From a virus (taxonomy: Duplodnaviria; Caudoviricetes): a stretch of 64,000 nucleotides of DNA. Position 1 is the first letter of the stretch; every line of letters begins with the position of its first letter. Location: IMG/VR virus record IMGVR_UViG_3300036971_000112, positions 4,536 through 68,535 of that record; one strand, given 5' to 3'. A model generated the notes under the pieces. It made no database searches and was not told the origin of the DNA. It was given only the letters and a program-made list of their open reading frames with translations. Positions 4,507 to 55,030 of this stretch are shown here, piece after piece. The position numbers were made by a program, and so were the translations under genes.

Positions 4507-4572
4507 GGTTAACTCCAATAAGTGAAACGCCTCAATTGAGGCGTGTTGCGGTGTAACTTAGTGTAAGTCAGT

Positions 4573-21798: not shown

Positions 21799-21959
21799 TA
21801 TCTCTTTTATAAGGTAAATACCCCGTCAAACGTACCACAATCACCGTTAAGCCGTGTTAAAGCTTAAAAGGGTAGATAGGTAACGGGTAGATAGGTAACG
21901 GGTAACGTGCCGTTAAAGCGTGTTTTTCCGACAGGTAACGGGAAAACACGAAAAACAAG

Positions 21960-22004
21960 CAAGACAAAAAGCCTAAACAGATAACTGTTAGGCTTTTTGT
22001 CTTG
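21960..22004 (-). terminator. intrinsic terminator after the 22042-22887 gene
   Basis: 17-bp arms CAAGACAAAAAGCCTAA/TTAGGCTTTTTGTCTTG. Confidence 0.75.
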
Positions 22005-22012
22005 TCAGTTTA

Positions 22013-22039
22013 GGCGGGTATTGCTACCCGCCCTTTTTT
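22013..22039 (+). terminator. plus-strand intrinsic terminator
   Basis: GGCGGGTA-TTGC-TACCCGCC followed by CTTTTTT. Confidence 0.7.
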
Positions 22040-32149: not shown

Positions 32150-32728
32150 TTAATCAGTGATCGAAACTGTGTACGCCATTAAAGCAGCGAAAGCTCTAGG
32201 ATCAATGAGAGCTTTCCACTTTTCGGCTTGAGATTTGATGTAGGCTTCTTTGGCTTGTTTGTAGGCGTTGTGGGCAAGCTCAGGAGTATGAAAGTGGCCT
32301 AGATAGTTAGAAGGCAAACCACGGTGACATTCAGCCTTAAACTTACCCTGATGAGCAGAAACACCTACAGGGAGACTACCCCTGCAAGCCTTACTGGAGA
32401 TTAGCAAACTATTTAGTTCCCTTGGTAAGAATAAGCACGTATCTTCGGAGTACACTTTATTACCTTTGATGAGGAAGTCTTTATCTAACTGGAAATCTTC
32501 CTGACCAAATCCTATTTGCCTATGACACCACTCATAAAAATAAGAGTAACTCTTGAAATTTTCACTGGCTGAACAACCGATATAGGTAGGACGTTTTTTC
32601 TGACAGATTGGGGAGTAGCAACGGTTTAAGAGACTCCTCCAAAGGTTGTATTCTTTAATATGTTTACGTTCCAGAGATACAGGATATTTTCTATCGTTGA
32701 AACCAACACCACAGACTAATTTAGTCAT
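32150..32728 (-). CDS. HNH-like homing endonuclease with AP2-like C-terminus (copy 2)
   Basis: Collinear paralog of 8621-9202 (GVGFNDRKYPVS, SENFKSYS, QAEKWKALIDPRA identical); AAGGA RBS. Confidence 0.75.
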   Translation of the reverse strand: MTKLVCGVGFNDRKYPVSLERKHIKEYNLWRSLLNRCYSPICQKKRPTYIGCSASENFKSYSYFYEWCHRQIGFGQEDFQLDKDFLIKGNKVYSEDTCLFLPRELNSLLISSKACRGSLPVGVSAHQGKFKAECHRGLPSNYLGHFHTPELAHNAYKQAKEAYIKSQAEKWKALIDPRAFAALMAYTVSITD

Positions 32729-32762
32729 TTTCGATTCCTTATTCAAAGGTATTCTGAAGTGA

Positions 32763-32827
32763 TGCAGCAACAGGTGAATTAGTCCTGCTTTCGGGTGGCC
32801 GCCCTAAGCTGCAAATAAATTATACCA
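32763..32827 (-). promoter_or_regulatory. extended -10 promoter and three-way-junction leader of HNH-AP2 copy 2
   Basis: TGGTATAAT (32827-32819), stalk TGCAGC/GCTGCA, GGG/CCC hairpin, GAAAG linker, CAGG/CCTG hairpin. Confidence 0.65.
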
Positions 32828-39474: not shown

Positions 39475-40314
39475 ATGGCTGGTGAAGCCCGTTCCATTGA
39501 TTTTTTAGCCGGCACCGCTACCATTATGTTGGGGCTTCCTGCTGACTTGCGTGACTTCCGTCCTGAAACTCATTCTATTGGCTTAGTCAAAAACGTAAAG
39601 CTAATGGCTGAGGCAACTTACATTGAGTTAACTCAGGGTCTTCGTAACTCTGTTGTCCACTCTGTTAAGACAGGTGAGCCTGTTCGTGCCTCTGCTGAAG
39701 TATATGAGTTTAATGCTTCTAACTGGAGCTATGCTTTAGGCTTCAGCGGGTATAATGTCGGCATTCCAACTACCAGCGTAGGTTCAGCCGTTATCGTCGC
39801 TGTTGAAGCACTTACACCTGCTAATGGTTTACTGGCTCCAGCCAACACCTCTGGGTATGTTAATTTCACCCTTACAAATACCACCAATTTTGTTGTTGGG
39901 GATTATGTTCTAGTGCAGATGGGGATTAACGACGTGGTTGTTCCCCGCCGTATTGTTGCAAACGCTTCTGGTGCCCCTGCTAGTTCTTTAACCTTCGATG
40001 CCCCTATCAAAAACATTGATATTGGCAACGGTGTAACGGTTACCAAGTGCTTAATTGTACCTGTTGGCCGTAAGTCTGAACAGCCATTCTTGGCGGCCAA
40101 GATTGTTGGTAACATGGCTGATGGCCGTGAGATTGCAATTGAAATTCCAAAATTGCGTATTACTAAAGGTTTTGATGTTACTTTTCAAACCTCTGACTAT
40201 ACTAACATGCCGTTTGAGTTTACTGTTTACGACCAGATTCCTGCTGATAATCAATATGCTCGGTTCCAAGAGCAGTTTGATGGTGCCTCTGCTGTGATAT
40301 ATACCAACCATTGA
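39475..40314 (+). CDS. major tail (tube) protein
   Basis: 279 aa, GGAG RBS, terminator after; precedes chaperone pair and tape measure. Confidence 0.75.
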   Translation: MAGEARSIDFLAGTATIMLGLPADLRDFRPETHSIGLVKNVKLMAEATYIELTQGLRNSVVHSVKTGEPVRASAEVYEFNASNWSYALGFSGYNVGIPTTSVGSAVIVAVEALTPANGLLAPANTSGYVNFTLTNTTNFVVGDYVLVQMGINDVVVPRRIVANASGAPASSLTFDAPIKNIDIGNGVTVTKCLIVPVGRKSEQPFLAAKIVGNMADGREIAIEIPKLRITKGFDVTFQTSDYTNMPFEFTVYDQIPADNQYARFQEQFDGASAVIYTNH

Positions 40315-40346
40315 TAGGTTAGAGAGTCCTCCTCTAACCTTTCGGT

Positions 40347-40380
40347 AAACAAAACCCGCTTTTATGCGGGTTTTGTTTTT
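40347..40380. terminator. bidirectional terminator
   Basis: AAACAAAACCCGC...GCGGGTTTTGTTT between convergent genes. Confidence 0.85.
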
Positions 40381-40387
40381 AGTCGGT

Positions 40388-41098
40388 TTAGGCGTTTAAC
40401 ACGCTCTTTTTCCATTTGTAGTTATAGCCACTCTTATTTCCGCTAACCCATTGGTGGCGTACAGCAAAAGGTTTACCTTTATCAGTCGGCACCCACTCAC
40501 TGTTAATTTTCGCCTGAAACCCTCTTTCTTCTAACCATTGGTTCATCTTAATCGCCGACAAGCCTAGCCGTTTACCTAACTCGGTTGGCTCTACGGCCTC
40601 GTCCTCTAGTCGGATCATGCTTTGAGCCGGAGCGAGTCGAAGTATTTCGGTAAGGTCAATCTGGTAAGTTAGTCTTGCACCTTTCACGGCCTCTACTTGG
40701 GCTAGGTGGGTTGGCACCTCAAAGAGAGCAGCTAACTGCATTACCGCAGTAATGTGATTAACAGCTAAATCAGTAGGGGTTCGAGGGAGTACAGGCGCGA
40801 CAGGGGAGGCGTTGAAAGTTTTCAACTTCTCTAGGACGGTACGGCGTACGCCTTTAGACTCTCGCATTGCAACCAATAAACATTGATCTTGATTAAGAGT
40901 GTAGAAAAAGGACTCCGTGTTGTTCGAATTTTGAACTACATTTTTTTCGTAGTGGAACCCATCCAACTCATCGACGATTCGAGCGTTAAAATCGTTAAGA
41001 CGGATAGCTTTCTCGCCATGTTGTAGGCGAGCATTGTTCACAAGCTCTAGCAAATCTCGACTAGACATCGTAGAAGTTGTTATAGTTAAATCTTTCAT
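40388..41098 (-). CDS. antirepressor-like protein (Rha-like N-terminus, KilAC/ANT-like C-terminus)
   Basis: TMSSRDLLELVN, ESKGVRR.V; C-terminal PTELGKRLGLSAIKMNQWL..RGFQ...W.PTDKG. Confidence 0.75.
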   Translation of the reverse strand: MKDLTITTSTMSSRDLLELVNNARLQHGEKAIRLNDFNARIVDELDGFHYEKNVVQNSNNTESFFYTLNQDQCLLVAMRESKGVRRTVLEKLKTFNASPVAPVLPRTPTDLAVNHITAVMQLAALFEVPTHLAQVEAVKGARLTYQIDLTEILRLAPAQSMIRLEDEAVEPTELGKRLGLSAIKMNQWLEERGFQAKINSEWVPTDKGKPFAVRHQWVSGNKSGYNYKWKKSVLNA

Positions 41099-41278
41099 CA
41101 TCTTCAAATCTCAAAAACGAAAAAGCCGTTTCTTATAGACTGGTAGCAGAGGGTGGAAGTCAAACACCCAACAGTCAAAGAAACAGCTTTTTCGTTGGCT
41201 TCAAATATACCTGAGACTTCGCTGCTACGCTTCTCCTCAGATGTTTAGAATTGTAAACGCAAGAACGACTAACGTCAA
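41098..41278 (-). promoter_or_regulatory. promoter plus two-hairpin CI/C4-like leader of the ant gene
   Basis: TTGACG-17-TACAAT (41278-41250); 5' hairpin; ~19-bp stalk with 8-nt bulge; U tract; homologous to 54184-54371. Confidence 0.75.
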
Positions 41279-41337: not shown

Positions 41338-41706
41338 ATGACTGCTTTAACACAAACTTACACCCCACCTGAACCTTACTTTACTCTTGCTAACGGCAAA
41401 GAGTTGAAGATGACCTTTGGTATGCTCAATCGACTCGCCCGTATTGCAGGTAATGTTGAGACGTTAGGTATGGTTATGATCGACAGTGACCTTCAACAAG
41501 CCCTATTAAGCCAGTTGTTTGCCACTTATGATGAGAAAGGTAAGCAGCTCGAAGTAGCCGACATTGATGACATTAACTGCTCTATGGAGGAGCTACTTCA
41601 ATTGTTAGCGTGGGTGTTAGAGAATTTGACCTATTTTTTTCTCAAGAATCTTCAAAACTCGGCGAAGATAGCTCAGCAGTACAAGCCCGAGGAAAAAGCA
41701 CAGTAG
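41338..41706 (+). CDS. tail assembly chaperone (gpG-like)
   Basis: Position after tail tube gene; GAGG RBS; slippery T tract near the 3' end. Confidence 0.75.
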   Translation: MTALTQTYTPPEPYFTLANGKELKMTFGMLNRLARIAGNVETLGMVMIDSDLQQALLSQLFATYDEKGKQLEVADIDDINCSMEELLQLLAWVLENLTYFFLKNLQNSAKIAQQYKPEEKAQ

Positions 41707-42038
41707 AGTTTAAGGCTTTCCAATCTTGGTTTGGCAGCCTGACTTTTCACGAAAGCGTGGCTTGGGCTTACGGTTGCTCTAAGAGCAACCTGAGACTCAT
41801 CTACTGGCAGGAAACTTTTGAGGACATACAGCTAAAGCTTCGTTTCAAGGTGGGTGAGAAACAGATTGAAGCCTCCCAAATGTACGAAGCGATAGTATCT
41901 GTAGCGTCACAGGTCTTCGGTAGTGACGAAGGCAGTAACTCGAAGGACTTGAGTAAGGTCAAGGTAGCCGATCAGAACGTAGCTAAAACAAGTTACGAAG
42001 CAATCAATATGTTTAGTGATATTTTTGGAAGGGGTTAA
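41634..42038 (+). CDS. gpT-like -1 frameshift extension of the chaperone
   Basis: Open -1 frame overlapping the G ORF; T TTT TTT at 41634-41640, alternative G GAA AAA near 41691. Confidence 0.65.
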   Translation, partial: FFSQESSKLGEDSSAVQARGKSTVEFKAFQSWFGSLTFHESVAWAYGCSKSNLRLIYWQETFEDIQLKLRFKVGEKQIEASQMYEAIVSVASQVFGSDEGSNSKDLSKVKVADQNVAKTSYEAINMFSDIFGRG

Positions 42039-49850: not shown

Positions 49851-50528
49851 ATGAACCCTGTAGACACTGCAATCGCCCAAGCTGCTGAAGCTGCCAAAAA
49901 CCTCGAAGCACAAGCTCAACAAGTTATCCCTGCACAAACATCAACTGCCGTTTCTACAGCAGTTGGCGGTTTTGATGATGATGACGATACCCCAAGTGGC
50001 TTAGTTGTTGACCGTTGGATTCGTGTTTGCCCTGACGGTGTGTTGTTTGATAAAACTCACACTGCCAAGCAAGCCGTTGACAAACCTTTCCGCGTTGCCA
50101 TCAACACCCAACGTGAGGTCGGCTACCGTAATATGTTTTCAATCGCTTGGGGTAACCCAACGAAGTATGCCAAAACATATAACAACCCGAAAAAGGGTGC
50201 TGCTTTCGATACTGAAGGCCGTCCTTGGACTCAGGTGATTGCTCAAGCCAAAGCTGAAGACCCTAAAGCTTACGACTACCAAACTGCTGAAGTTGCGATG
50301 ACTTTGTTAGCTGACACCTGTGGGGTTACAGCAGGTAAAGTGTTGGCGACCAGTTTCTCGTTTAGCCAATCAAAAAACTGGTTTAGCTTCTTAGATGAGG
50401 TAGCTAAAGCAGGCTTAAAAGGTCAAGTTGTTGAGGTTGAACTAGGACACTTCAAAGAAAACAAAGGCAACTACAAACCTTGGGGTGTCTACACCTTCAA
50501 GTTGATTGGTGCCTATAACCCAGCGTAA
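49851..50528 (+). CDS. putative ssDNA-binding protein
   Basis: Highly biased codons, acidic DDDDD patch, aromatic-rich, first gene of the replication operon; function inferred. Confidence 0.45.
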   Translation: MNPVDTAIAQAAEAAKNLEAQAQQVIPAQTSTAVSTAVGGFDDDDDTPSGLVVDRWIRVCPDGVLFDKTHTAKQAVDKPFRVAINTQREVGYRNMFSIAWGNPTKYAKTYNNPKKGAAFDTEGRPWTQVIAQAKAEDPKAYDYQTAEVAMTLLADTCGVTAGKVLATSFSFSQSKNWFSFLDEVAKAGLKGQVVEVELGHFKENKGNYKPWGVYTFKLIGAYNPA

Positions 50529-50544
50529 AACAACAAAGCTTTAC

Positions 50545-50571
50545 AATACCCACTTCGGTGGGTATTTTTTT
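50545..50571 (+). terminator. intrinsic terminator
   Basis: AATACCCAC-TTCG-GTGGGTATT-TTTTT. Confidence 0.85.
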
Positions 50572-50595
50572 ACCCAGCCCTCCTTTGAGGTGTTT

Positions 50596-51387
50596 ATGCT
50601 ACACATTTATGATGCCAATAACCATATCCGCCGCGCCTTTGAGCGTGGTGACACTGTAACCGATATGGTTAATCCTAACCCTGCTGAGGTTTGCATTTGG
50701 GTCTTTGACGGCGTAGGGGCTAAGAAACCGAGACTTGCTCTCTACCCTGAGTACAAAGCCAAGCGGAATGTTCAAAGTGCGATAGACAGCGGTTTCTTTG
50801 ACTTCCTACGAGCTATCGAAACAGACCTCTTAAAACACTGCAAGAACACGTTTGTGATGAAGCAACCGTGTATGGAGGCCGATGACGTGATTGCAGCCCT
50901 TGTTGAGCAATACAGAGCGTCCCAGCAAATCCTAATCCACTCAAACGATGCCGATTTCCAAGCTCTTGTTGATGAGAACGTAAGTGTTTCTGATCGAAGC
51001 AAGAAGCTATCTCACGTAGAACCTCACGACATACGGCTTTACAAAACGCTTGTCGGTGACGCTTCCGATAACCTTGGGGGTATTGAAGGTTTTGGTGACG
51101 GCAAATGGCAGGTACTTACTGAGGAAGATAAAGCTGGATGGCGGAACTTTCTCAAAGAGGAGATACCAGAGTGGATGGGTGACAACCTTTACCCGCTTAA
51201 CGGCCTCACTAAAAAACCTTTAGAGTGGATGAAAGTTACAGAGAACCAACAATTGTTACGAACTTACTGGCAGATTGTCGGGTTCTTACCTGTTAATATG
51301 CAGGAACTGAGTGACAAATACACCTCAGTTGGAGTTTACAATCCTGTGAAGTTCCAAGAAACGCTCGATAAATTTATGTGGAGTTAG
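50596..51387 (+). CDS. 5'-3' exonuclease / flap endonuclease
   Basis: IYDAN, WVFDG, YPEYKAKR, EADDVIA, SNDADF, LVGDASDN..GI.GFG; GAGGTG RBS. Confidence 0.9.
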   Translation: MLHIYDANNHIRRAFERGDTVTDMVNPNPAEVCIWVFDGVGAKKPRLALYPEYKAKRNVQSAIDSGFFDFLRAIETDLLKHCKNTFVMKQPCMEADDVIAALVEQYRASQQILIHSNDADFQALVDENVSVSDRSKKLSHVEPHDIRLYKTLVGDASDNLGGIEGFGDGKWQVLTEEDKAGWRNFLKEEIPEWMGDNLYPLNGLTKKPLEWMKVTENQQLLRTYWQIVGFLPVNMQELSDKYTSVGVYNPVKFQETLDKFMWS

Positions 51388-51389
51388 CC

Positions 51390-51626
51390 ATGCCATTACG
51401 AACCTTCTGTCCTCTCAGCAGGCTTGATGCCTTCGCTGACTTTGTAATGAGGAAAGGTTGCCCAAACCGTCATGGTAGAGGTAGCTATCAAGCTTTACAG
51501 GTTTACGTCAACCAGAAGTGGGAAATTCTTTACTCGAAGCCCACAGAGTTTCCTGATGTCTGTTTCACCGTAGGAGTTTCACCTCTTAGTTTACTTTTAG
51601 AGGTGTTTCTTAAAAACGAACACTAA
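51390..51626 (+). CDS. hypothetical protein
   Basis: 78-aa ORF with GGAG RBS. Confidence 0.55.
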   Translation: MPLRTFCPLSRLDAFADFVMRKGCPNRHGRGSYQALQVYVNQKWEILYSKPTEFPDVCFTVGVSPLSLLLEVFLKNEH

Positions 51627-51677
51627 ACACTGTTTCCAAAAACGCAACACCAACCACTACTCAAGTGAGTCCATATC

Positions 51678-54203
51678 ATGTTAGACCCGAATAAAATTGC
51701 CAAAACCTTAGTCGATCGCCGTAACCTGAAGGAAGTCTTAATCAAGCTGACCCCGATTTTAGCAAAGACCCAACTACTTGGCTTTGACATCGAAACCCAT
51801 GACGCGCTTCGCCATGAAGGTTTAAACCAACTGATGAAGATTGACGATGACGGTAAGAAGTCAGCAGGTTCAAAGTTAATCTTCGACACCAACCGTACAA
51901 CGGTAACTGGCTTCTCGTTCTACCCTGACGGCACCGATGAATCTTATTACTTCAACCTCGCCCACGCTGATGCCGAGAACTGTATTAGCTTCGACGAAGT
52001 ACGTCACCTCCTTGATAGCTATACTGGTTATTACATCATCCACAACGCGCCGTTTGAGATTGTGATGTTGGAGAAGGGCTTAAATACCAAATGGAAGCTT
52101 CCTCACGGCAAGGTGATTGACACGCTGATTCTATGCGTCACCGCGTATAACTCCGACACCTACACGAAGTCGGAGTTTGCCAAACGCCAACTGACTGGCT
52201 TGTACAAACTAATACCTGACATCATGGTCGCTTATGGTAGCGGCGACGTTGAACGGCAAGAGGACTTGGTGAACAAGTTCTGTGCCAAAGAAAGTGATGC
52301 AGCTCACTCATACAATGGCTTCGTCAAAGAATTTGCGTGGGGTTTTAACCTCAAGAAAGCCAGCAAGCATTGGCTTAATTACACCCAAACAACCTTTGAG
52401 GAAGTCTTACAAGGTCGAGGCCATATGGGTCAGATTACAGGGGCTGAGGTCGTCAACTACGGGGCTGACGATGCGATTACCTGTGTGGGTATTTACCATG
52501 AAGTCATGGCGTGGCTGATGCAAGAGAACCCTAACGCGATTAAGACCTTCTTTAACCAAGAGAACCCTTGCTGCTGGGTTTATGCTCAGATGAACGCAAG
52601 CGGGATGCGTGTTGACGTTGACGCAATCTATCGCGCTCAAGATTCTCAGCGTATCGAGTACGCTGTTGGTTTGCGTAAGATGAAAACTATTCTTGCCGAA
52701 GCGTTAAGCACTGTTTGGACAGGTGAGCCGAGTCAACAACTCCTTAAATATGAGAAGTGGTATGAGAAAGGCCGCGACCGTTATCTCAGTCTGATTAAAC
52801 AGTTCGTTGCGTTACCTGATAACTTATCAGATTATGACCTTGTTAACTTTGGCGTTCGCTCCCCTGTAGGTAAAGGCTGGAGTGGTGAGGAGGCTAATGC
52901 TGTAAACCTCAGCCATTACATGCCCATGCGTGTCATCTTGTTTGAAATCTTCGGTTTAAAGGCGATGGTTGAGGCACGTAAGATTCAGTCTGACGGTGAG
53001 GCGCGTGACAAGTTACGGGCGAAGGCTGAGGAGAGCGGGAACAAATTGGTGGTGGAGTTGATGGATTGCTATAAAACAATGGGGGAGATTGAGGGTTCGC
53101 TCAAGCTTTATATCAACAACTATCTCAAAATGGTCGATCCCGACACTGGAAAACTTTATCCAAGTATCAGTTCTATCTTAGACACACGGCGTACTTCTAC
53201 CTCAAACCCTTCACCGCAACAGCTTACAAAGTTCGGCAGCAGTAAATTTGTTCGCTCGTTCTTTTTGCCTGACGACGATAACTCAATTATCGTCGCACCT
53301 GATTTTAGTGCTATTGAGCTTCTGATAATAGGGGGCTACTCCAACGATGCTGCCTTCCTTCGCGCTTACGGTCAACGGCCTCATGCTGACTTACACAGCC
53401 AAACGGCTGCTTTTATGACAGGACTGAGCTTAGAAGACTTTAATAAGCTGCCAAATAAGAAACAACTGCGGAACGAAATCGGCAAACCTAGCGGGTTTGG
53501 GTATTTCTATTCTGGGTCTTTGAGTACGGTAGGTAAGCCTTTAGGCTGGGAAAAGGAAAAAATCTGGGAAATGACTGAACTATTTCGTGAAGGCTATGCC
53601 GAAGCTGAACAATGGCGTTTAGATACCATAGCGGAAGCAAAGCAACGCGGCTATGTCGAACTCCCTGACCATCTTCGTCGGTATCGTTTTGAGTCAACCC
53701 CAACGTGGGCACAGTTGATGCAAAATAAATTTGAGAAACTAGGTGTTAATGAGTTTGGTAAACAGTGTATTAGACGAATCCAAGCTCGTAGCTCAAACAT
53801 GGCTGTTAACGCGCTGGTTCAAGGGCTTTGCGCCACCTACGCCAAGCGTAAACTCTATCGCGCCATGTTCACAGACTTCCCACGTTTGGGTTTACGAGCA
53901 AGAGTGATGACCTTGATTCACGATGAATTAGTTGTCTCCGTTCACCGTGACGACGTTATGAAGGCCAAAGACTACCTTTATGAGTTAATGATTGACAGTG
54001 AAGGTATCTTTGACAATGTGATGATTGACTCCAGCATGGCGATGGGTCGCAATTACTTGGCTTTCAATGCCGAAAAGAATCCTAAAGGCTTGGTAGAGCT
54101 GATGGAGATTGACAAGGAACTGCCTTGTATCCCTAAAGAGCGTTGGGGTCAAAGAGCTACCGATAATGAAACTGGCTTAATCCTTGATTACCTTTTCAGT
54201 TAG
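51678..54203 (+). CDS. polA: family A DNA polymerase with 3'-5' exonuclease
   Basis: FDIET, HNAPFE, YGADD; TRRTSTSNPSPQQL, motif A PDFSAIE, motif B K..GFGYFYS, motif C IHDEL. Confidence 0.92.
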   Translation: MLDPNKIAKTLVDRRNLKEVLIKLTPILAKTQLLGFDIETHDALRHEGLNQLMKIDDDGKKSAGSKLIFDTNRTTVTGFSFYPDGTDESYYFNLAHADAENCISFDEVRHLLDSYTGYYIIHNAPFEIVMLEKGLNTKWKLPHGKVIDTLILCVTAYNSDTYTKSEFAKRQLTGLYKLIPDIMVAYGSGDVERQEDLVNKFCAKESDAAHSYNGFVKEFAWGFNLKKASKHWLNYTQTTFEEVLQGRGHMGQITGAEVVNYGADDAITCVGIYHEVMAWLMQENPNAIKTFFNQENPCCWVYAQMNASGMRVDVDAIYRAQDSQRIEYAVGLRKMKTILAEALSTVWTGEPSQQLLKYEKWYEKGRDRYLSLIKQFVALPDNLSDYDLVNFGVRSPVGKGWSGEEANAVNLSHYMPMRVILFEIFGLKAMVEARKIQSDGEARDKLRAKAEESGNKLVVELMDCYKTMGEIEGSLKLYINNYLKMVDPDTGKLYPSISSILDTRRTSTSNPSPQQLTKFGSSKFVRSFFLPDDDNSIIVAPDFSAIELLIIGGYSNDAAFLRAYGQRPHADLHSQTAAFMTGLSLEDFNKLPNKKQLRNEIGKPSGFGYFYSGSLSTVGKPLGWEKEKIWEMTELFREGYAEAEQWRLDTIAEAKQRGYVELPDHLRRYRFESTPTWAQLMQNKFEKLGVNEFGKQCIRRIQARSSNMAVNALVQGLCATYAKRKLYRAMFTDFPRLGLRARVMTLIHDELVVSVHRDDVMKAKDYLYELMIDSEGIFDNVMIDSSMAMGRNYLAFNAEKNPKGLVELMEIDKELPCIPKERWGQRATDNETGLILDYLFS

Positions 54204-54370
54204 GTTTACAATTCTCTACATCTAGTGAGTAGCGTGACAGCAAAGCATTAGATATTATTAAACGTATGAGAAAGCCGTTTTGTTTTTAGCTTGTTGGGTT
54301 TACGTTTAGACCCTCTGTCACCAAGCGAAGAAAACTAAAGCGGCTTTTTCATTTTTGAGATTTGAGAACT
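54184..54370 (+). promoter_or_regulatory. promoter plus two-hairpin CI/C4-like leader of the rha gene
   Basis: TTGATT-17-TACAAT (54184-54212); same architecture as 41098-41278 with compensatory changes. Confidence 0.75.
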
Positions 54371-55030
54371 ATGAAAGATTTACTAAGCAGCACCGTAATG
54401 AGTTCCCTTGAGATTGCTGAACTCACAGGTAAGCGTCACGATCACGTTATGTTTGACATTCGCAAGATGCTTGAGGAACTAGGAAATCTCACTCCCGACT
54501 TTTCGGGAGTGAGAAAAGTTCGAGGTAAAGAGTACGAGTGCTTTAATCTACCTAAGCGCGAAACTTTAATTTTAGTCTCAGGTTATAGTACCGAACTTAG
54601 AGCTAAGATTATCGACCGTTGGCAGTTACTTGAGGAGAACTTAGTTTGCGAGCAAGAGCGAATCTTCGCCCGTCAACAGGCTCGCTTGGAAGCCCCACTG
54701 ATGAGCAAGGCTTTACAGGAAGCGCGTACACGGTTAGGGAAGGAATCGCCAAGCCATGTTTACTCAAACGACTTCGATATGATTAACCGCATTGTCTTAG
54801 GCTACCCAGCGAAGAAGTTTAAGGAGTTACAAGGTTTAGATAAGGAAGCAAGCCTGAGAGACGCTTTAACGCCTGAGCAAATCAAAGCCGTTCAAGCCTT
54901 ACAGAACTTAAACCAACTGCTTCACGAGCTTGACATGAGCTTTGAAGATCGAAAAGTTAAGCTTACCACCATCTTCATGAGAAACCACAACGCAGCACTC
55001 GTGGCTGAAGTCTTGAAGTTAAACGCTTAG
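54371..55030 (+). CDS. Rha-family regulatory protein
   Basis: [53 protein letters not shown]. Confidence 0.85.

Follow-up and report, generated by a model that had tools for sequence, protein, structure and literature searches.

Two structured leaders ahead of ant and rha

The stretch of DNA analyzed here (the window) comprises 64,000 nt, positions 4,536 to 68,535, of the IMG/VR virus record IMGVR_UViG_3300036971_000112, which is 68.5 kb long and 84% complete. Two of its genes, ant on the minus strand and rha on the plus strand, are each preceded by a structured leader, and we refer to these by gene as the ant leader and the rha leader. An alignment of the two leaders that starts at the promoter and includes the first four codons shows 80% identity; the two proteins can hardly be aligned past MKDL...MSS. 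In both, a sigma70-type promoter is followed by an 8-bp 5' hairpin (P1) with an 18-nt loop, a long interrupted stalk, a run of U residues and the start codon. The stalk is made up of three successive helices, P2 (17–22 bp), P3 (5 bp) and P4 (4–5 bp), with an apical loop and an 8-nt bulge on the 3' side, and ends with GGC followed by U5-N2-U5. Every element listed in an earlier reading of this DNA, made without database searches (the sequence-only reading), is in place. The predicted folding energies are -50.2 kcal/mol for the ant leader and -48.0 kcal/mol for the rha leader, with z-scores of -4.5 and -5.5, respectively, each against 200 shuffles, none of which (0/200) folded as well.

Four short words in these leaders are of particular concern: a1 in the loop of the 5' hairpin, a' in the stalk bulge, b1 in the linker between hairpin and stalk, and b' in the apical loop. 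Within each leader the loop word and the bulge word are exact 7-nt complements, and the words differ between the ant and rha copies. Each apical loop likewise has a complementary word upstream, as had been claimed from the sequence: TTAAACGTA/TACGTTTAG in rha and GAAGTC/GACTTC in ant. The ant leader is an exception as regards b1, its best match (GAAGUC) lying inside the P1 loop, with an imperfect match at the usual place in the linker. For the two window leaders the predicted energy of cognate pairing is about -18 kcal/mol versus about -11 kcal/mol for cross pairing, a gap of about 7, and so the two cassettes would not be expected to cross-talk.

A family of leaders with covarying codes

Metagenomes contain about 2,900 homologues of the Rha protein. 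From 80 loci around Rha-type genes, searched with a leader profile, 47 unique leaders were obtained, 31 of them distinct after trimming; they lie upstream of Rha, KilA-N and Ant genes of related metagenomic phages. Three other viral contigs carry ant leaders that are nearly identical, in one case ahead of an HNH-AP2-like gene in place of ant, and a diverged third version, with a third code (GUGGAAA/UUUCCAC), precedes a rha of 62% identity. A covariance model built from this family (R1) finds exactly the two leader copies in the window and two per larger related contig.

The order is always promoter, element, start codon. The position of the promoter is kept and many members have an extended -10 (TGTGnTATAAT). 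The U-run of the stalk ends 10–20 nt ahead of the start codon of a Rha/KilA-N/Ant-type gene, the distance between the 3' base of the stalk and the Shine-Dalgarno (SD) sequence is about 5–10 nt, and that between its 5' base and b1 is 0–2 nt. In 31/31 members the spacer between P3 and P4 is only 2 nt (UU or UA).

Pairing was scored on an alignment (A5) of the 31 sequences, with 500 shuffles and slid partners as the null. The structure as a whole is 95.5% paired compared with 81.3% in shuffles (0/500 as high) and 42–58% with slid partners. Paired cells amount to 99% in P2, 100% in P3 and 98% in P4, with many compensatory changes in each; the P1 hairpin forms in 29/31 members and 8/8 of its pairs covary. 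The helix between a1 and a' is 100% paired, with changes on both sides in 6/7 pairs, and one of its columns displays all four Watson-Crick types (CG, UA, AU and GC). Every complete leader carries in its P1 loop a perfect 7-nt complement of a', one leader having 6 bp plus G-U, and in complete leaders a1 always lies 50–55 nt upstream of P3. The family uses 11 different a codes, all with an a' of the form YYNYY-A-C/U preceded by U.

The second pairing covaries as well. It comprises 7–9 bp in at least nine variants, b1 usually consisting of UUAAAC plus 2–4 variable nt in the linker, where it touches the 5' base of P2; its position is fixed, at -27 to -31 from P3 in nearly all members. G-U pairs are frequent and are valid on the sense strand only, which marks the structure as one of RNA. 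Both pairings, a1:a' and b1:b', are almost certainly real. The sequence-only reading had noted from two copies that loop and bulge change together; this complementarity is kept across the 31 leaders, and the covariation persists in the larger alignment.

Positions of the features of both window leaders are collected in Table 1.

Table 1. Elements of the ant and rha leaders, in window coordinates
Feature	Position	Strand	Basis or remark
ant promoter TTGACG-17-TACAAT	41250..41278	-	10/12 consensus matches
ant P1 5' hairpin, 8 bp, 18-nt loop	41209..41242	-	fold
ant a1 GTAGCAG in P1 loop	41228-41222	-	complement of a' CTGCTAC
ant b1 candidate GAAGTC in P1 loop	41220-41215	-	complement of GACTTC
ant linker segment GAAGCCAAC	41194..41202	-	b1 position of all other members; imperfect (4+3 bp) apical-loop complement, presumed from comparison by hand
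ant stalk: P2 19 bp, P3 GACTG/CAGTC, P4 GGGTG/CACCC	41116..41196	-	fold and covariation
ant b' GACTTC in apical loop	41161-41156	-	fold
ant 8-nt 3' bulge, U plus a' CTGCTAC	41150-41143 (a' 41149-41143)	-	fold
ant tail GGC plus U5-CG-U5 at stalk base	41112..41127	-	presumed terminator U-tract
ant gene: weak SD GAGA, ATG at 41098 (ATGATG), pRha-like N-terminus and KilAC/ANT C-terminus	40388..41112	-	
rha promoter TTGATT-17-TACAAT	54184..54212	+	overlaps polA end
rha P1 5' hairpin	54220..54253	+	fold
rha a1 GTGACAG in P1 loop	54234-54240	+	complement of a' CTGTCAC
rha b1 TTAAACGTA in linker, touching stalk 5' base	54258..54266	+	position as in nearly all members
rha stalk: P2, P3 GCTTG/CAAGC, P4 GGGT/ACCC	54267..54351	+	fold and covariation
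rha b' TACGTTTAG in apical loop	54301-54309	+	fold
rha bulge, U plus a' CTGTCAC	54314-54321 (a' 54315-54321)	+	fold
rha tail GGC plus U5-CA-U5	54342..54357	+	presumed terminator U-tract
rha gene: SD region, ATG at 54371, Phage_pRha domain	54357..55030	+	PF09669, E = 2.4e-16

Database searches

Three models of Rfam 15 come into question: C4 (RF01695), c4-a1b1 (RF03163) and isrK (RF01394). Nothing in the window reached the gathering score of any Rfam model, and neither leader matched any of these three at E ≤ 10, nor did 10 other family members at E ≤ 5. Permissive scans returned only miRNA-precursor noise arising from the long hairpin. As positive controls the C4 model scored 68.8 bits on phage P1 and 74.9 bits on P4, isrK 60.8 bits on P4 and c4-a1b1 51 bits on phage P1. 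Conversely, the R1 model found no match in immI/c4 of phage P1.

By blastn the three leader types had no match among 50,697 phage records, hence in no cultured phage at that sensitivity. The pattern TTTTTGAGATT-N6-8-ATGAAAGA recovered from IMG/VR only close relatives and four chance matches. A scan of genome contigs for the Rha protein returned one contig of a metagenome-assembled genome (Thiopseudomonas, L217) with a 55% Rha homologue and no leader. The family is therefore absent from Rfam 15 and, by blastn, from the 50,697 phage records, and the suggestion that the elements belong to a related or new RNA family is borne out in that a C4/CI-like layout goes together with the lack of an Rfam match.

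A second IMG/VR pattern, GGCTTTTTYGTTTYT(N)GAGA, was discarded as a leader finder because it was swamped by an unrelated conserved terminator before a P2-like prophage sheath gene (MSFFHGV...). The corresponding motif GGCTTTTTCGTTTCTGGAGA, with a conserved upstream region of about 110 nt, is found in more than 100 prophage-like contigs (L100–L216) before the gene starting MSFFHGV, which probably specifies a P2-like prophage tail sheath; its upstream terminator or leader is unrelated to the ant/rha family.

A search of the 68.5-kb genome and of the sequences downstream of all family members gave no second a1+b1-like site, in agreement with the sequence-only reading, which had seen no downstream target of the seqC type. 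Complementarity of a' and b' to the 45–60 nt downstream (the SD/AUG region) was, in all members, no better for cognate than for non-cognate combinations.

Resemblance to c4, CI and IsrK RNAs

The c4, CI and IsrK RNAs are the classic RNA-only immunity switches of phages P1, P4 and N15 and the Gifsy phages. Based upon Rfam and the GenBank annotation, phage P1 (NC_005856) has a promoter, a hairpin whose loop holds the 7-nt a1, and an 8-nt single-stranded b1 (hairpin and b1 together being c4-a1b1). About 70 nt past b1 comes c4, a three-way junction, with b' in the loop of its second hairpin, UCUGUCAA (a') at the junction and a closing stem; the a2/b2 sites overlap the icd ribosome site. The leader family shares with it the succession of promoter, a1 hairpin, b1 (7–9 nt in the family), b' in a loop, U plus a 7-nt a' and closing stem, as well as ant/kil-type genes as the presumed objects of control, and the rha bulge UCUGUCAC is one base from the phage P1 a' UCUGUCAA. 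A common a' format, U + YYNYY + A + C/A, holds for phage P1, P4 and the ant/rha family.

The differences are considerable. The first, GC-rich hairpin of P1 c4 is replaced by 2 nt, so that the family RNA is a bulged stem-loop rather than a three-way junction, and the closing stem is lengthened to a stalk of about 28 bp ending in a U-run. In the family a1b1 adjoins the effector, whereas in phage P1 it lies about 70 nt upstream, and there is no a2/b2 over the ribosome binding site. The 3' end is a U-run instead of the CCACC tail of the RNase P product, and the window phage, unlike P1, is apparently virulent.

In P4 (L219, 8692-8420, minus strand) the isrK-family element has three parts in succession: a hairpin that displays GUGAGAA in its loop, the sequence UUCACAGG and a small intrinsic terminator. 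The P4 CI RNA has CCUGUGAA in a loop and U-UCUCAC at the junction, and both words recur in seqC, which lies over the next SD. Here again the RNA factor is encoded in the leader that it controls, with an upstream target hairpin, b1 and an intrinsic terminator, and the code seqA GUGAGAA/CI UUCUCAC is identical to that of the family members L026 and L023. Control by premature termination, as summarized for P4 in PMC4825925, would be a further likeness, presumed for the family. In contrast to the family, the a1b1 module of P4 has its own small terminator, with CI following about 100 nt on as a separate processed three-way-junction RNA, and seqC covers the next SD; in the family seqC is absent and the stalk itself would be the terminator hairpin.

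The isrK-orf45 (STnc1160)-anrP region of Gifsy-1 in Salmonella offers a promoter-proximal short RNA, a Rho-independent terminator and read-through into the antirepressor mRNA, the short form of IsrK acting in trans on the long form (PMC4825925). IsrK differs in that it uses a small upstream open reading frame (ORF) and unmasking of the ribosome binding site, and activates; the family has no such ORF or complementarity to the ribosome binding site.

The plasmid rep leaders of pT181, pIP501 and pAMbeta1 are also to be considered, as loop-loop recognition by a small RNA there decides the fate of an intrinsic terminator upstream of the gene. In such countertranscript attenuation the antisense RNA comes from the opposite strand, whereas regulator and target of the ant/rha family lie on the same strand and the same transcript.

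Taken by layout, kinship of the family with the c4 clan is likely. The architecture of the leader family is distinct: its effector would be the terminator, it has a1b1 only, and all its parts lie on a single short transcript.

The stalk as a putative terminator

The stalk has the layout of an intrinsic terminator, namely a stable hairpin and a GC clamp with a U-tract directly after it. Its predicted energy ranges from -29 to -40 kcal/mol, and in 31/31 members it ends in GGC/GCC + U5-6 + N1-2 + U3-5. The pairs between A5 and U5-6 and the GGC clamp are invariant (columns 58/134 and 59/133 being AU in 31/31), although the stalk pairs next to them vary, so that more than pairing alone seems to be constrained. 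At the sequence level the 3' end of the stalk is GGC plus U-run and not ...GCCACC, and the U-run argues for a terminated rather than an RNase P-processed RNA. We infer that the stalk is an intrinsic terminator, and control is probably exerted there.

Other hairpins with a U-run occur in the window, at 40314-40383 and 21915-22035, with weak leader-model scores (19–24 bits). The first, with the convergent ORF 39475-40314 on one side and ant on the other, resembles a bidirectional terminator. Weak R1 matches at window positions 21958-22035 and 40314-40383, and at L017:4971-5052, were set aside as ordinary terminators.

How the leaders might regulate their genes

We suggest that a host-type promoter drives a leader RNA of about 125–135 nt, which would be a compact c4/CI effector fused to its own a1b1 target. 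The stalk would terminate most transcripts as a short RNA, the gene being read only by read-through. In the nascent leader b1:b' and a1:a' would form first, in cis, and delay closure of the stalk, permitting read-through. Short RNAs made earlier could then cover a1 and b1 of new transcripts of the same code in trans, whereupon the stalk would close and transcription stop. The outcome would be code-specific negative feedback.

Predicted folds are compatible with such an order of events. With transcripts cut after P4 or a', the minimum free energy (MFE) structure holds b1:b' or a1:a' in 5/7 leaders tested, and the full-length RNA of these leaders always folds as the stalk, which makes the cis helices candidates for a transient antiterminator. 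Since b1 adjoins the basal end of a stalk of about 28 bp and b' occupies the tip, at a distance of about 70 Å, pairing of b in cis and a complete stalk should on geometric grounds be mutually exclusive. As summarized in PMC4825925, the P4 CI RNA causes premature termination via pairing with seqA upstream and seqC downstream, and the short-RNA logic put forward here is the logic reported there for CI.

We put at about even the chance that each region acts as the private attenuator of its cassette, code-specific and of the P4 CI type, and at slightly below even the chance that the short RNA acts in trans. More tentative is the full form of the proposal, a one-transcript version of c4/CI in which the effector is the terminator hairpin, the only target is the a1b1 nearby, and same-code transcripts are shut off in trans, giving each cassette a private, protein-free feedback or immunity loop whose codes were diversified by mutual silencing among co-infecting relatives.

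Several observations weigh against such regulation. Covariation is unable to separate cis from trans pairing. Target and effector are both present on each terminated RNA, and self-pairing or dimers could therefore blunt trans action. A simple terminator scan makes no call on either stalk, because the hairpin is unusually long and interrupted. As neither the Rfam models nor R1 against the c4 of phage P1 gave a match, common descent is argued from layout only. P3 is as variable as the a helix, which leaves diversifying selection on the codes, a sign that would speak for trans action, no more than suggestive. Finally, the related IsrK short RNA activates and does not repress (PMC4825925).

It is possible, if rather doubtful, that these leaders are attenuators or structured leaders acting in cis only. 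The pairings would then be intramolecular, a transient antiterminator or tertiary clamp setting a fixed or factor-dependent level of read-through, and the codes would reflect neutral compensatory drift. Several results suit this: the MFE structures of nascent transcripts hold the cis helices, the targets lie 25–55 nt from the effector on the same RNA, no a2/b2 site for a trans RNA emerged from the genome or the members, and P3 covaries as much as the a helix, so that fast neutral covariation is plausible. The difference in code between co-resident copies also matches chance. Such pairs carry different codes in 3/3 cases, which is not significant, since with 11 codes two copies would differ at a rate of about 0.9 per pair by chance. 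Of the earlier proposal that the two units were re-coded so as not to cross-talk, the re-coded seeds and the stronger predicted cognate pairing stand, but selection for orthogonality is unproven.

Other features of the leaders fit action in cis less well. All four words are kept single-stranded, in loops, bulge or linker, as in kissing antisense RNAs, and the closest known systems (P1 c4, P4 CI and IsrK) act in trans. Among moderately diverged leaders the codes change about three times as fast as the remaining leader sequence (0.30 vs 0.10–0.15); leaders about 90% identical differ at 3/5 variable code positions, on both sides, with P3 and b unchanged; and the a and b codes assort independently across scaffolds.

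Unlikely, in our estimation, is a post-transcriptional logic resembling that of IsrK or of a sponge, whereby the short RNA pairs with a1/b1 of the read-through mRNA near the ribosome site and alters its translation or stability, by activation as with IsrK or by occlusion of the ribosome, or the a1b1 part titrates the stalk part. The precedent is the short form of IsrK, which targets its own read-through transcript in trans and switches on the antirepressor gene anrP, and the SD and b1 of the family do flank the two ends of the stalk base (at about 5–10 and 0–2 nt). Complementarity to the SD/AUG region is, however, not above background, there is no small upstream ORF like orf45, and the invariant U-tract points to control of termination.

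That the elements are not regulatory RNA at all, being a duplicated promoter-terminator segment or inverted repeats acting as DNA (origin, recombination site or protein operator), is very improbable: the stalk is palindrome-like, R1 scores the opposite strand weakly (32 bits) and the cassettes sit at different genome positions in relatives, but the non-contiguous pairings covary with 11 codes, the G-U pairs are valid on the sense strand only and the element always stands between promoter and start codon. A riboswitch was rejected, as its "pocket" nucleotides would be exactly the hypervariable ones.

Genes behind the leaders and the window phage

The genes behind the leaders fall into three classes, Phage_pRha, pRha + KilAC (ANT) and KilA-N, and one homologue (L054:1666-2373) matches both Phage_pRha and ANT. 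Such ant/kil/rha genes are the classes under the control of c4, CI, CA and IsrK. The exception to antirepressor/kil cargo is one leader copy that stands before an HNH-AP2-like gene. In that contig (L006:8879-9190, IMGVR_UViG_3300020046_008203) an ant-type leader, its code identical, has behind it not ant but a gene starting MSKLVYGVGWNDGKY, and the product of this gene shows 50% identity over 40 aa to the HNH-AP2-like ORF at 32150-32770 (minus strand) of the window. A homing-endonuclease-type gene appears, on the basis of these similarities, to have replaced the cargo behind the same leader.

In another contig (L054:826-1700, Ga0209277_10007003) two leaders 680 nt apart form tandem cassettes. 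The first, with the rha code, precedes a shortened pRha ORF of 133 aa; the second, with the code CCGCTAC, precedes the pRha + ANT gene.

The window phage is a siphovirus, with genes for TerL, portal, major head protein, tape-measure chaperone, a 2,430-aa tape measure and a J-like tail protein, and its replication genes specify a primase, helicase, exonuclease and PolA. PolA shares about 40% identity with its counterparts in Achromobacter phage JWF, Acinetobacter phages TCUP2199 and EAb13, Xylophilus phage Lumi and Caulobacter phage Seuss, all siphoviruses of about 80 kb. Of the ORFs scanned in the window, from a record 84% complete, none was identified as an integrase or repressor, and the phage is apparently virulent.

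Tail genes and the tape-measure chaperone flank the ant cassette, which is on the opposite strand; a relative carries a KilA-N cassette downstream of the tape measure in the same orientation. Because the cassettes occupy different genome positions in relatives, they behave like movable morons with their own promoter.

Two further features of this region may be mentioned. An exonuclease-like gene and the family A DNA polymerase are found at 49851-54203, between the tape measure and the distal tail genes, which is an unusual place for replication genes; the relative L017 has the same order. Ahead of the gene for the 2,430-aa tape measure, the ORF of the tape-measure chaperone (41338-41706) shares an overlap with a second ORF at 41610-42038, and overlapping chaperone ORFs before a tape measure are the usual setting for a programmed frameshift.

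Significance

To our knowledge, the purpose of the conserved upstream a1b1 (seqA) sites of the c4/CI/IsrK systems is still unclear. The family described here isolates the a1b1 interaction in a minimal, naturally re-coded form: as it keeps only a1b1 and an effector fused to the terminator, the contact between a1b1 and a'b' must carry the whole function. A 135-nt RNA for which 11 codes occur in nature thereby puts the question of a1b1 within direct reach of experiment. The small programmable code, with about 5+3 variable nt, could serve in synthetic biology as a source of orthogonal attenuators. A c4-type design reaches past what Rfam detects, into uncultured, apparently lytic siphoviruses, as portable promoter-leader-gene cassettes, and if the proposed one-transcript loop is true the family would reveal the still-unexplained role of the a1/b1 sites in c4 modules of the phage P1 type.

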